Below the pieces are notes generated by a model that did not search any database, was not told the origin of the DNA, and saw nothing but the letters and a program-made list of their open reading frames with translations. A stretch of DNA of 44,212 bases from Escherichia phage Henu5_1. Location: the sequence record PQ133007. The stretch is one strand, 5' to 3'. Positions 2,871 through 42,790 of this stretch are shown here, in pieces (the first letter of the stretch is position 1; the number at the start of each line of letters is the position of its first letter). The translations under genes were made by a program, and so were the position numbers.

Positions 2871-3026
2871 AAAATCCGGGATTGCAAAATACACGGCAGC
2901 ATGTCGCGGATTGCGGTCGTCGCTGAACTAGGCAACCAATGCGAGATGCAGAAAGCGGTGTGGAAAATGCAGTTTGCAGTTGCAACGGATAGCGATCGAC
3001 TTTTTCATGCGCATGATTAATATTGG

Positions 3027-4990: not shown

Positions 4991-5008
4991 TTATGCAAGC
5001 GTGATATA

Positions 5009-6483: not shown

Positions 6484-6492
6484 AACCCAGCA

Positions 6493-6517
6493 AGCCCGGT
6501 TAATTCCGGGCTTTTTA
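6493..6517 (+). terminator. Rho-independent terminator
   Basis: AGCCCGG-TTAATT-CCGGGCT followed by TTTTT. Confidence 0.6.
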
Positions 6518-6521
6518 TTGC

Positions 6522-6552
6522 TTGACTTGCAACCAACATAGACGCCATACTG
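6522..6552 (+). promoter_or_regulatory. Putative promoter (TTGACT -35) with TGCAACCAAC motif in spacer
   Basis: TTGACT at 6522-6527; weak -10 CATACT; motif copies at 6527-6537 and about 6553-6561. Confidence 0.35.
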
Positions 6553-6580: not shown

Positions 6581-6661
6581 ATGGCACGTAAAGATATTTG
6601 GGTATTAGCGATCTGGACCACCGCGGCTTTTATCGGCATGGTTATTTGCGAATTGATATAG
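6581..6661 (+). CDS. Possible 26-aa hydrophobic peptide
   Basis: ATG 6581 with GAGAGGAG RBS; hand-translated MARKDIWVLAIWTTAAFIGMVICELI; very short, low confidence. Confidence 0.25.
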   Translation: MARKDIWVLAIWTTAAFIGMVICELI

Positions 6662-6674
6662 CCCGCCGCCATAC

Positions 6675-6700
6675 GGACCGTGGTATATTGTCCACGGTCC
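6675..6700. promoter_or_regulatory. Perfect 9-bp inverted repeat GGACCGTGG-N8-CCACGGTCC (operator-like)
   Basis: Palindrome with TATATT in the 8-nt spacer, 23 nt upstream of HTH-phosphoesterase gene start. Confidence 0.4.
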
Positions 6701-6722
6701 ACTAATCAGGAATTAATTAAAT

Positions 6723-7865
6723 ATGCACCCGCAAACTAAAATTACCGATGAGCAATTGATCGCAGAAATTCAGGCAGGGACTACGGTTAAAGAGATTGCG
6801 AAGAAATACGGGATTGCCCTGCGCAATGTCTATATGCGGAAAGCCCGCCTATCGAAAAAAGGAATTGGGCACGGCAACGATGCCGTAATCCGCAAGCGCG
6901 TTGCCGATGGCTTCGGCGTTAAGCGCGTATCGGCCCTGGTGCGCGGCAATGGCGAAGAGGTCATGTCGTGGGTCATCACTGAGCAGGACAAGGAGCGCCA
7001 ACTCGAAGCTATGCGCGCTGTTGTCGATGGCATGAACAGCGAAATCACACCGGCAGCGCCAGTAAAAGCCCCGCCAGTCCCGATCCAGGCGCTCGACTTG
7101 CTAAACCTGTACACCGTGTCAGACTTCCACCTGGGCATGTTGGCATGGGGCGAGGAGACTGGAGAAGACTGGGATATGGCGATCGCCGAAGACCTGTTCT
7201 ACCGCTGGTTTGTCGAAGCCTTCGCCCGCGCACCGGACGCAGGCACTGCCGTGATCAATATCCTCGGCGATATGGCGCACTTTGATAGCCTTGATGCCGT
7301 CACCCCCGCCAGCGGGCACGTACTGGATGCCGACACTCGATACCAGAAGTTGGTCCGCTATATGATACGCATGGTGCGCAACGTCGTAGACCTGGCGCTG
7401 CAAAAACACCATAAAGTCAAACTGCTAATCGTCCAGGGTAATCATGACGAGTCGGGCATGATTTGGCTTGCTGAGATGTTCAACACGCTGTACGAGAACG
7501 AGCCGCGCGTCGATGTGGATACGTCCCCGGACGTCTACAAAATGGTGCAGCACGGTAAGACCACGCTGTTTTTCCACCACGGGCACAAAGCGCGATTCGA
7601 TGCTATCGAGCAGGTTATGATCGCTAAATTCAGACAGGCGTTCGGGTCGAGCGAATACAGCTACGCGCACGTAGGTCATTTGCACCACCAGAAGATTGTC
7701 GAGTCTCGCAACATGATTGTTGAACAGCACCGGACGCTCGCAGCGAAAGACGCCTACGCCAGCCGCGGCGGCTGGATGAGCGGTCGCAGTGCCAACGTCA
7801 TTACCTACAGCGCCAACTACGGCGAAGTAGCGCGCTTAACCATTAGCCCGGAAATGTTGAAGTAA
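6723..7865 (+). CDS. HTH domain fused to calcineurin-like metallophosphoesterase
   Basis: N-terminal HTH-like TVKEIAKKYGIALRNVYMRKARL; phosphoesterase motifs DFH, GDMAHFD, GNHDE, HHGH, GHLHH. Confidence 0.6.
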   Translation: MHPQTKITDEQLIAEIQAGTTVKEIAKKYGIALRNVYMRKARLSKKGIGHGNDAVIRKRVADGFGVKRVSALVRGNGEEVMSWVITEQDKERQLEAMRAVVDGMNSEITPAAPVKAPPVPIQALDLLNLYTVSDFHLGMLAWGEETGEDWDMAIAEDLFYRWFVEAFARAPDAGTAVINILGDMAHFDSLDAVTPASGHVLDADTRYQKLVRYMIRMVRNVVDLALQKHHKVKLLIVQGNHDESGMIWLAEMFNTLYENEPRVDVDTSPDVYKMVQHGKTTLFFHHGHKARFDAIEQVMIAKFRQAFGSSEYSYAHVGHLHHQKIVESRNMIVEQHRTLAAKDAYASRGGWMSGRSANVITYSANYGEVARLTISPEMLK

Positions 7866-7870
7866 CGGCA

Positions 7871-7911
7871 ATAAGTAAGCCCCAGCCTGCCGATTTGGTG
7901 GGCTTTTTTGT
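7871..7911 (+). terminator. Possible weak terminator
   Basis: Short GC stem with large loop followed by TTTTTT. Confidence 0.35.
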
Positions 7912-7993
7912 GCCTGTTATAATCCACCTTAGATGGCAGGGCCGTCTCTTATGTTGCCGATGGTCGGCGCATATGAACAAAAGGGCTTATATC

Positions 7994-8545
7994 ATGGCAG
8001 AAATCAAAGTTAAGGGCCGACGCGCCAAACTGGACGGACGAGTAGCAGTAACCCCGCGCCGTAAACCAGGCGAGCAAACCGAGCACACCAATCTTGGACC
8101 TGAAATCGAGTACGGAAAGCGCCGTAAAGGCGGCAAATGCGGACGCCCTACTGACTACCGATCCGTTTACTGCGACCAGCTTCGCCGCTATTTTGCCGAC
8201 GCCGACGCCTGGCGGGTCAACTACTCCGATAAAGGCGCTGCGCAAGTAATCCCTCGCAACAAAATGCCAACCTTCGGTCGATTTGCCGCTGAAATCGGCG
8301 TAGGCGTCGCCTGCCTGTATCGATGGGCGCGTGCGCATGAGGAGTTTGCCGAGGCGATGGCGGACGCAATGGAACTGCAGAAAACCTTCCTGATGGAAGC
8401 TGGCGGCGTGACCATCGCGGCGGGCTTCGCTACATTCCTGCTTAAAGCAAACCACGGCGTCCGCGACGATGTACCGCTGGATGACGACGAAGATGATAAC
8501 GGTGACGTAGTTGTCGAACCTTCCGGCAAAGGCCAGGGTGAATAA
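7994..8545 (+). CDS. Terminase small subunit (putative)
   Basis: Immediately upstream of and overlapping terminase large subunit; HTH-like segment; acidic C-terminus; ATG 7994 chosen over track start 7895 on RBS grounds. Confidence 0.5.
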   Translation: MAEIKVKGRRAKLDGRVAVTPRRKPGEQTEHTNLGPEIEYGKRRKGGKCGRPTDYRSVYCDQLRRYFADADAWRVNYSDKGAAQVIPRNKMPTFGRFAAEIGVGVACLYRWARAHEEFAEAMADAMELQKTFLMEAGGVTIAAGFATFLLKANHGVRDDVPLDDDEDDNGDVVVEPSGKGQGE

Positions 8546-32892: not shown

Positions 32893-32916
32893 TGCAACCA
32901 ACCTATTGGTTGCAAG
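32893..32916. promoter_or_regulatory. Palindromic double motif GCAACCAA-N4-TTGGTTGC
   Basis: Two motif copies as a perfect inverted repeat overlapping the 3' end of the HAD-like gene, upstream of gene 32837. Confidence 0.5.
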
Positions 32917-41367: not shown

Positions 41368-42790
41368 TGCTTAAGTCCTCGTCAGTGGCCTCCGACCACG
41401 CGGGGCGCGGGTCGTCGATAGGTGCTAACACCGGTTTAGCGGGTGCGCGTGTGATTTTAGCACACAGCTTCGCCCACACTTTCGGTTTTTCGTCCTTCAG
41501 TACCTTCTCGGCATCTGTCGGGCTGAGCAATGTTTCTTTGTACATCACATCGCGCTTGACCCGTGCCTTAGTGAAGATTTCAATCACTTCGCTCTCGTCC
41601 GCCCACTTACGGATCCCTTCCTTACCGGCAACCATCTTGAGGCCCAGCGATTCGCCATCGCCCGCCATGACCGCCTTGAATACCGCGGACTCGATAGCCT
41701 TGATGTGCTGGCGCATTGCGTCCAGACCTTCATAAGCCTTGCGCAGTTCCGCCGCGCTCATAGCGCCTGGTGTGGATTCCTTCTTGCCTCGTTTAGCACG
41801 TCGGGCAGCCTTCCTGGCTTCGCGGGCCATATTGCGATCGTGGTTGGCGCATTCTTCCTCGGTCGCCACGCTCACGTCGTCGCCCAGGTCTTCGTCGGTT
41901 GCCGTTGGTTGGGCCATCGTATCGATTGCAGCCTTAGCGCGGGCGCTACACTGATCCGCAAATCGGCACCACTGACACGCATCAACGCCCGGTCGGAAGT
42001 CGGCACGGGTGAGTCCTTTCTTACCGCGGGCGTACGCTTCCAGGGCGGCGATAGCACGCTTGGACGCAAACTTCGCGAATATCTCCAGGGCTTCTACCGA
42101 AATATCCCACTCTGACGCCCCGCCGCAATACGGCTGGAAGATAACCAGGCGCACCGTCGTAATGTCGTACATGGTTTTCAGCTTGCGCAGTAAGCCCAGC
42201 GCGTACAACATAAGCTGTTTGTTTTCTTTTGCCTCGACCTTATGCCGCCCGGTCTTCAGGTCGCCAACGATCAGCATGTACGTTCCGTCGGTCTTTTTCA
42301 TGACCATGACCATATCGGCAGTACCGAACGTTTTAATCCTGTTGCCGTCGACCTCGAAGCCAGAGTGTAGGACGCGGGTAAGATCGGCGCGCATCTCAAG
42401 CTGAACAAACTCCGCCACTTCGAGGAGCGGTCGCCAGTGGTCGATGTACGCATCGCACTGCTTCACCATATCGTCGTTGACCAGTACGCCGCCTTTCGGT
42501 GCTTTTGGGTGGGCCTTTACCGGCCCCCTGCCTTCGTTCTCGACGTAACATCCTTTATACGTCTTCGCGGTTATTTTCTTCTCACCGGCGATAATGCGGT
42601 TTAGCACCACTTCAGATACGGTGTGCATACTCGTACCGTTAATCGCGGCTTGCCCGGATTCGTTCGGGATATCTTTTTCTACCACCAGGGCGGCGGGACA
42701 CCCCATCCATTTTTTAGCACCGGATGGGCCAAGTAATGAGTGTTCCGTATTACTACCGGATTGCGTTTTACGTTTTGGTTTAATCGCCAT
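41360..42790 (-). CDS. PD-(D/E)xK exonuclease, Cas4-like with 4-Cys cluster (DUF2800-like)
   Basis: 476 aa; N-terminal Cys (MGCPA) and C-terminal C-x2-C-x5-C (DACQWCRFADQC) typical of Cas4/RecB-family Fe-S nucleases. Confidence 0.6.
   Translation of the reverse strand: MAIKPKRKTQSGSNTEHSLLGPSGAKKWMGCPAALVVEKDIPNESGQAAINGTSMHTVSEVVLNRIIAGEKKITAKTYKGCYVENEGRGPVKAHPKAPKGGVLVNDDMVKQCDAYIDHWRPLLEVAEFVQLEMRADLTRVLHSGFEVDGNRIKTFGTADMVMVMKKTDGTYMLIVGDLKTGRHKVEAKENKQLMLYALGLLRKLKTMYDITTVRLVIFQPYCGGASEWDISVEALEIFAKFASKRAIAALEAYARGKKGLTRADFRPGVDACQWCRFADQCSARAKAAIDTMAQPTATDEDLGDDVSVATEEECANHDRNMAREARKAARRAKRGKKESTPGAMSAAELRKAYEGLDAMRQHIKAIESAVFKAVMAGDGESLGLKMVAGKEGIRKWADESEVIEIFTKARVKRDVMYKETLLSPTDAEKVLKDEKPKVWAKLCAKITRAPAKPVLAPIDDPRPAWSEATDEDLSNE

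Follow-up and report, generated by a model that had tools for sequence, protein, structure and literature searches.

The gene at 6723..7865 (+ strand) of Escherichia phage Henu5_1 is, on balance, best explained as encoding a stand-alone DNA nuclease of the Mre11-like kind, tethered to DNA by its own helix-turn-helix (HTH) and expressed from its own transcription unit; we lean toward this explanation over the others considered here. The window analyzed is the whole 44,212-nt record PQ133007, which by its matches to relatives is the genome of a Dhillonvirus, an HK578-like coliphage. The original prediction took this open reading frame, which encodes 380 aa, to be a fusion of an HTH with a metallophosphoesterase (MPE), and domain search, alignment, and fold all bear this out.

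The 1.6 kb around the gene matches 156 phage records at 80 to 99% identity, nearly all of them Escherichia phages of the genus Dhillonvirus (HK578, vB_EcoS_011D5, and others). Its product is the ortholog of HK578 gp59 and T1 gp16 and falls within PHROG 704, the phrog_704 profile matching it with an E value of 1.3e-161 (residues 5 to 380 on profile positions 2 to 390 of 390). The HK578 gp59 gene, labelled "DNA repair exonuclease," has 96% DNA identity to the Henu5_1 gene, and T1 gp16 (ST16) is 45% identical to the 380-aa protein over its full length. The same gene in 011D5 is labelled "putative phosphoesterase," and PHROG 704 itself carries the labels "DNA repair exonuclease" and "phosphoesterase." All of these family names derive from homology only; the literature searched held analogies but no functional or experimental study of any PHROG 704 member. 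Given that full-length architecture and sequence family are shared among PHROG 704, T1 gp16, HK578 gp59, and the Henu5_1 protein, the last is a member of this family.

The family is large. By tblastn, a homolog of the 380-aa protein is found in 2063 phage records, with at least 80% of the query covered in 1681 of them; the carriers include Dhillonvirus, Kagunavirus, Jerseyvirus, and T1-like Drexlerviridae, as well as phages of Klebsiella, Vibrio, Rhizobium, and Campylobacter. When 1.84 billion cluster representatives were searched exhaustively with HMMER (50% identity clusters; cutoff, E ≤ 0.001), 4683 clusters matched, and among the 150 matches listed, most are 370 to 420 aa long and many align from close to the N terminus. 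Within the genus, 154 of the 156 phage records with the TerL of Henu5_1 also have the gene, which makes it a core gene rather than a sporadic insert; more widely, the PHROG 704 gene belongs to the core set in several groups of virulent siphoviruses. The view that the fusion is uncommon does not survive these counts, since the same architecture is that of the whole family. The Henu5_1 copy is an ordinary, already catalogued member, and in that sense the window brings nothing new. We also considered a free-standing homing endonuclease or other selfish gene, an idea prompted by the layout of HTH, linker, and nuclease, by insertion sites that vary, and by HNH genes as frequent neighbors. It was rejected because such genes are sporadically present and this one is core.

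Residues 121 to 380 (7083..7862, + strand) form a calcineurin-like/Mre11-like MPE domain in which the following motifs can be read from the sequence, all on the + strand: motif I, DFH, with D134 and H136 (residues 134 to 136; 7122-7130); motif II, GD, with G182 and D183 (7266-7271); motif III, GNHD (residues 239 to 242; 7437-7448); motif IV, HHGH (residues 285 to 288; 7575-7586); and motif V, GHLH (residues 318 to 321; 7674-7685). All five motifs of the superfamily, DxH, GDxx(D/H), GNH(D/E), H, and GHxH, are therefore represented, the GDxxH form of the second spanning residues 182 to 186. Motif II of archaeal Mre11 is likewise of the GDxxH form.

In an alignment of 46 diverse family members (32 to 49% identity), D134, H136, G182, D183, T194, N240, H241, H286, G318, and H321 are invariant, and at least 90% of members keep H186, D188, G239, D242, H285, H288, and H319. 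With the metal-ligand motifs invariant or conserved at this level in 46 members, the active site is evidently under selection. The full set of phosphoesterase motifs claimed from the sequence is therefore present and conserved, and the outcome that the original prediction had named as counting against it, motif residues that are not conserved, is not what the alignment shows. The Pfam models place the protein just under their gathering cutoffs (Metallophos PF00149, 20.2 bits versus 21.5; Metallophos_2 PF12850, 23.7 bits versus 27), and 11 of the 46 family members match PF00149, and 5 match PF12850, at E ≤ 0.01.

An AlphaFold2 model built from the family alignment (pLDDT, 91; pTM, 0.78) has the β-sandwich fold of MPEs, residues 51 to 57 being its only poorly defined segment. 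The top Foldseek matches of this model are Mre11 proteins, that of Thermotoga maritima first, and in a search of the family profile against the PDB, T. maritima Mre11/SbcD were the only MPE chains with E < 1. Aligned by hhalign with T4 gp47, a phage SbcD/Mre11 homolog, the family gave a probability of 79.6% and an E value of 1.5e-5, with motifs I to V in register. Homology to the Mre11/SbcD nuclease domain is thus detectable, and fold and profile matches together place the domain nearest to the Mre11/SbcD/DP1 nucleases. Judged by its predicted fold and conserved motifs, the enzyme is a binuclear metallophosphoesterase with an intact catalytic site, and its structural type is that of Mre11/SbcD/PolD-DP1. 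Another phage-encoded member of the calcineurin-like superfamily is the lambda NinI (PP-lambda) Ser/Thr phosphatase; profile comparison with it gave a probability of 1%, and the features of PPP-type Ser/Thr phosphatases that we looked for (PP-lambda homology and a GDxVDRG motif) are absent from the Henu5_1 protein.

The superfamily also includes enzymes that act on small molecules, and one can envision a counter-defense phosphodiesterase that hydrolyzes cyclic (oligo)nucleotides or related immune signals, much like the class III cyclic nucleotide monophosphate (cNMP) phosphodiesterases Rv0805 and CpdA, with the HTH having a localizing or regulatory part. We consider this unlikely. Nucleases outrank matches of the cNMP phosphodiesterase type in both fold searches, and the sequence profile reaches only gp47/Mre11. 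The conserved HTH is of a DNA-binding type and would have no obvious role in such an enzyme, and counter-defense genes are usually accessory, whereas this one is core. A PADLOC search for known defense system proteins gave no match, an observation that is weakly relevant here.

The N-terminal part of the protein begins with a three-helix HTH at residues ~8 to 46 (6744..6860, + strand; helices 9 to 17, 22 to 29, and 33 to 45), followed by a linker at residues 50 to 57 that is modelled with low confidence and then by a family-specific module of a β-hairpin plus helix that runs from residue 64 to residue 105 (6912..7037, + strand) or 107, delimited from the secondary structure of the AlphaFold2 model and from conservation. 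In the hairpin module, W83 is invariant and G77 nearly so in the family alignment; the fold search found no distinct structural relative of the module. For the 380-aa protein by itself, the Pfam HTH matches are weak (GerE, E = 0.016; HTH_28, E = 0.026). Across family members, they reach 1.5e-9 for Sigma70_r4_2 and 2.4e-8 for GerE, and the family profile matches GerE in the PDB at E = 0.015. In the fold search, the HTH matches sequence-specific DNA binders, operator-binding proteins among them. The proposed N-terminal HTH is therefore supported by family-wide Pfam matches and by fold, and we take it to be a real LuxR/sigma-4/resolvase-type HTH, recognizable across the family by sequence and in the model. 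The layout of HTH, flexible linker, hairpin module, and enzyme domain is conserved across the family.

The resemblance to known nucleases has clear limits. Identity between the Henu5_1 protein and Mre11/SbcD, T4 gp47 included, is only 13 to 17%, and alignments with SbcD and Mre11 chains, which are 319 to 362 residues long, cover only 186 to 192 residues. Mre11/SbcD proteins have a capping domain. In the Henu5_1 protein, ~60 residues follow motif V before the end at residue 380, so there is none. Mre11/SbcD proteins, in turn, lack its N-terminal HTH and hairpin module. Mre11/SbcD pair with a Rad50/SbcC ATPase, and here none is encoded adjacent to the gene, the neighbors being an Ig-domain protein and the small terminase subunit. 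No SMC-like ATPase is annotated in HK578 or 011D5, and none lies beside the homologs examined in other phages. The small subunit DP1 of archaeal PolD, a 3′-5′ proofreading exonuclease, differs in its N-terminal domains, and, unlike DP1, the Henu5_1 protein has no PolD-type polymerase associated with it: T1 has no annotated DNA polymerase, and HK578 has one, annotated only as "DNA polymerase."

Most probably, the HTH and hairpin module hold the enzyme on DNA while a Mn2+/Mg2+ center cuts phosphodiester bonds, which would make the protein a stand-alone DNA exo- or endonuclease. With DNA binding supplied by the HTH and hairpin module, a Rad50-like partner would not be needed. The original prediction had listed a DNA-targeted nuclease among its possibilities; that reading is plausible and is the one best supported by fold and profile similarity. 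More tentatively, the nuclease may break down host DNA for nucleotide reuse or, alternatively, process DNA ends or intermediates in phage replication and recombination. Both roles are attached, by annotation, to the Mre11-like nuclease T4 gp46/47.

Of these roles, the first touches an older question. Both T1 and its relative TLS break down the host genome, and a 2024 re-annotation of TLS states that this degradation has not been assigned to a gene product in either phage (PMC11447400). The HTH-Mre11-like enzyme could be what starts or drives degradation of the host chromosome in virulent siphoviruses of the T1-like, Dhillon-, Kaguna-, and Jersey-type groups; we hold this as a speculative and rather doubtful proposal. 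Under it, the HTH would guide the enzyme to DNA, and a preference for certain sequences or methylation states might keep phage DNA from being cut. Gp48 of the cluster A mycobacteriophage A10ZJ24 offers a parallel: it carries the five MPE motifs, is active as a phosphodiesterase, and damages the genomic DNA of the host (PMC12287305). Gp48 and the Henu5_1 protein are alike in being phage encoded and in carrying the five motifs, but only the latter has an HTH, the first motif of Gp48 lying at residue 10 and so leaving no N-terminal HTH (PMC12287305). T5 A1 has also been implicated in host DNA degradation (10.64898/2026.04.02.716235). We rejected it as a relative, hhalign aligning only a 19-residue stretch around motif III with a probability of 21.6%. 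Gp48 and T5 A1 serve here as functional analogies only. Were a partnerless, HTH-guided nuclease of the Mre11 type indeed to break down host DNA, an old question of T1 biology would be settled and an upstream trigger would be identified for defense systems that sense degradation of the host genome. One such system, PUA-Cal-HAD, detects m6-dAMP released when host DNA is broken down and is reported to protect against Bas12, a phage of the Tunavirinae (10.64898/2026.01.15.699771). The family, with its thousands of phage genomes by the tblastn count, is core in several genera that are used for phage therapy and as models.

Genomic context offers several further readings of the gene. As in 011D5 and HK578, the local order runs from small early genes through two holins, endolysin, and an Ig-domain protein to the phosphoesterase, followed by terS, TerL, and portal; the location proposed for the gene, between the lysis genes (holins, endolysin, and Ig-domain protein) and the small terminase subunit, is as described. 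In Dhillonvirus, the gene lies directly upstream of terS. Elsewhere, its surroundings change: in T1-like phages, dam precedes the homolog, and an HNH gene and a holin follow it; the Jerseyvirus homolog is within the tail module on the opposite strand; and that of Jedunavirus VLCpiM12a has a polynucleotide kinase gene on each side, and a dNMP kinase gene follows closely. A metagenomic phage carries the gene between TerL and portal, a T4-like contig between a clamp-loader gene and regA. In Campylobacter phage F371, an HTH-less version sits beside a resolvase and a DNA ligase. Genes of DNA and nucleotide metabolism recur as neighbors in some phages, in keeping with a nuclease; since the neighborhoods differ between genera, context yields no consistent functional partner.

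The position next to terS raises the idea of an accessory nuclease for packaging, one that works with terminase at pac/cos or clears branched DNA before packaging, and the placement in the metagenomic phage as well as in Jedunavirus (~2 kb from terS) could be taken in the same sense. Against this are the Jerseyvirus, T1-like, and T4-like arrangements, in which the gene has other neighbors, and the terminator that insulates it transcriptionally from terS in Henu5_1. We regard this as highly improbable. The original prediction had treated identity with a known terminase accessory factor as an outcome that would overturn it. Nothing ties the protein to such a factor, and we rejected this candidate because adjacency to terminase is not conserved across genera.

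The Jedunavirus arrangement invites a different idea, namely, that the enzyme heals ends, acting as a 3′-phosphatase or 2′,3′-cyclic phosphodiesterase in the manner of the MPE module of bacterial Pnkp and working with a polynucleotide kinase to mend nicked or cleaved RNA or DNA. The two genes that flank the homolog there are annotated as polynucleotide kinases, and T1 encodes a polynucleotide kinase too, although far from gp16. We consider end healing quite unlikely.

Some features of the surroundings deserve mention in their own right. In T1 (42028-42510) and in a Vibrio phage (6010-6519), the homolog is followed directly by an HNH endonuclease gene, and in Salmonella phage SeF1, an HNH gene is annotated under or adjacent to the homolog match; free-standing HNH genes may repeatedly insert into the terminator-flanked gap behind the gene. 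At 7866-7995, the window is without the small ORF of ~195 nt (HK578 gp60; 011D5 QMP82802) that lies between phosphoesterase and terS in relatives. Ahead of terS, this interval holds, besides the terminator at 7884-7904, a perfect extended −10 sequence, TGTTATAAT, at 7915-7923 and a short hairpin at 7931-7947. A record deposited as Acinetobacter phage NJ01 (OQ221563.1; host, A. baumannii) encodes a protein 99.5% identical to that of Henu5_1, with DNA ~96% identical; it resembles an ordinary E. coli Dhillonvirus, which makes its host assignment doubtful.

The remaining question is how the gene is expressed and whether its product controls it. Just upstream of the start codon, as originally described, is a perfect 9-bp inverted repeat, GGACCGTGG-N8-CCACGGTCC (6675..6700), with TATATT in the spacer; it ends 22 nt 5′ of the ATG and occurs once in the window. 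The repeat straddles a predicted extended −10 sigma-70 element, TGGTATATT (6681..6689, + strand), its left arm and spacer together reading gTGgTATATT. Transcription would be expected to start near 6696. Only three TGNTATANT sites occur in the window, and one of them is this predicted −10 element. The 24 Dhillonvirus-like loci compared have 18 distinct upstream sequences, and the promoter core TG[G/A]TATATTG is invariant in all 18. An AGGA resembling a Shine-Dalgarno sequence (6708..6711, + strand) lies 11 nt 5′ of the ATG, and ATCAGGAA is kept in most Dhillonvirus upstream sequences.

The palindrome behaves differently from the promoter that it overlaps. It had been proposed to be an autoregulatory operator, and one can extend this to a protein that is primarily a transcription regulator, its HTH acting on the palindrome at its own promoter or on other phage promoters while the enzyme domain senses or processes a signal. 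A perfect dyad flanking a −10 element, together with an HTH that has the fold of operator-binding proteins, is what such a protein would lead one to expect, and the dyad keeps at least 8 of 10 pairs in 12 of the 18 Dhillonvirus variants. It is degraded in the other 6, and these phages keep the promoter, with HTH residues 30 to 46 the same as in the window. In one clade, the dyad changes on both sides, gaining an outer G-C pair and losing an inner pair, and the same clade carries I31L/A32S at the start of the recognition helix; this co-variation is suggestive, but being specific to one clade, it is inseparable from shared ancestry. Outside the genus, the regions 5′ of the homologs in T1, Jerseyvirus AG11, Warwickvirus, Jedunavirus, and one metagenomic phage have no inverted repeat. 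An operator of this protein would be conserved with the gene and would co-vary with the recognition helix, and that is not the pattern observed across these upstream sequences.

Nor does the palindrome stand out in the genome. Counting perfect inverted repeats with 9-nt arms and 3- to 20-nt loops, we found 6 matches (at 5 places) in the window, compared with 4.0 ± 2.4 in dinucleotide-preserving shuffles; 9-bp palindromes like this one are no rarer than chance predicts. The genome holds no further full copy, and near-copies of the half-site are fewer than expected by chance, so we rejected the idea that the palindrome belongs to a regulon. A TGATATAGT site at 5002, considered as a third pairing of promoter and palindrome, was set aside as well, its repeat being followed by TTTTTT and looking like a terminator. 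These observations, and an invariant catalytic site that argues for enzymology as the main function, make a primary role in regulation very unlikely, and the autoregulatory operator does not hold up. The palindrome is a lineage-specific, dispensable overlay on the promoter and not a feature of the family. It may bind some regulator in the Henu5_1 lineage; there is no indication that this gene encodes that regulator. The data favor none of the four rivals weighed here, namely, counter-defense, end healing, packaging, and regulation.

We also considered whether the palindrome could act as RNA. Its fold, at −19.4 kcal/mol (z = −2.18), is moderately more stable than those of shuffled sequences. 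This moderate stability for its composition, the lack of a T-run behind it, and a search of Rfam with nothing above threshold led us to reject an RNA element; the sole Rfam match was to the rimP leader, at 27.7 versus 47 bits and on the opposite strand. Since the predicted transcript start lies inside the right arm, the hairpin would be whole only in readthrough RNA from a promoter at 6522-6551.

The feature that is conserved is, rather, a free-standing sigma-70 transcription unit, as the gene's own promoter and the hairpins flanking it indicate. A bidirectional terminator-like hairpin (6492..6513) closes the upstream lysis and Ig-domain genes, and a second terminator-like hairpin with a T-run (7884..7904, + strand) stands directly 3′ of the stop codon. 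In T1, an annotated terminator likewise follows gp16. The HTH-tethered nuclease would accordingly have a unit of its own, consisting of extended −10 promoter, short leader, ORF, and terminator, and its expression from the predicted promoter would presumably be early.

Between the upstream terminator and this promoter, the window has a predicted sigma-70 promoter, TTGACT-18-CATACT, at 6522-6551, followed by a hydrophobic ORF of 26 codons at 6582-6662 (MARKDIWVLAIWTTAAFIGMVICELI) that is without annotation in 011D5. The segment 6522-6662 is mosaic: some Dhillonviruses have a different sequence there, and in others, the terminator runs straight into the target gene's promoter.

The 9-mer TGCAACCAA occurs in 12 exact copies (at 3023, 3054, 3647, 6528, 13784, 13798, 29883, 32893, 32906, 34565, 34582, and 44016), compared with 0.41 expected, and none of 100 shuffles reaches 12. 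The copies often form close pairs, one of which, at 32893/32906, is palindromic, and often stand directly behind −10-like boxes; judged by this distribution, the set looks like putative operators of some phage regulator. T1 has 2 copies, compared with 0.6 expected, and is not enriched. The copy at 6528-6536 adjoins, with one base in common, the −35 hexamer of the promoter predicted at 6522-6551, ~150 nt ahead of the promoter of the target gene itself. Among the perfect short-range palindromes of the window, the longest is a 10-bp inverted repeat, GGGCGGGACA-N17-TGTCCCGCCC, at 2738-2774, which contains the GGGACA motif named in the original prediction.
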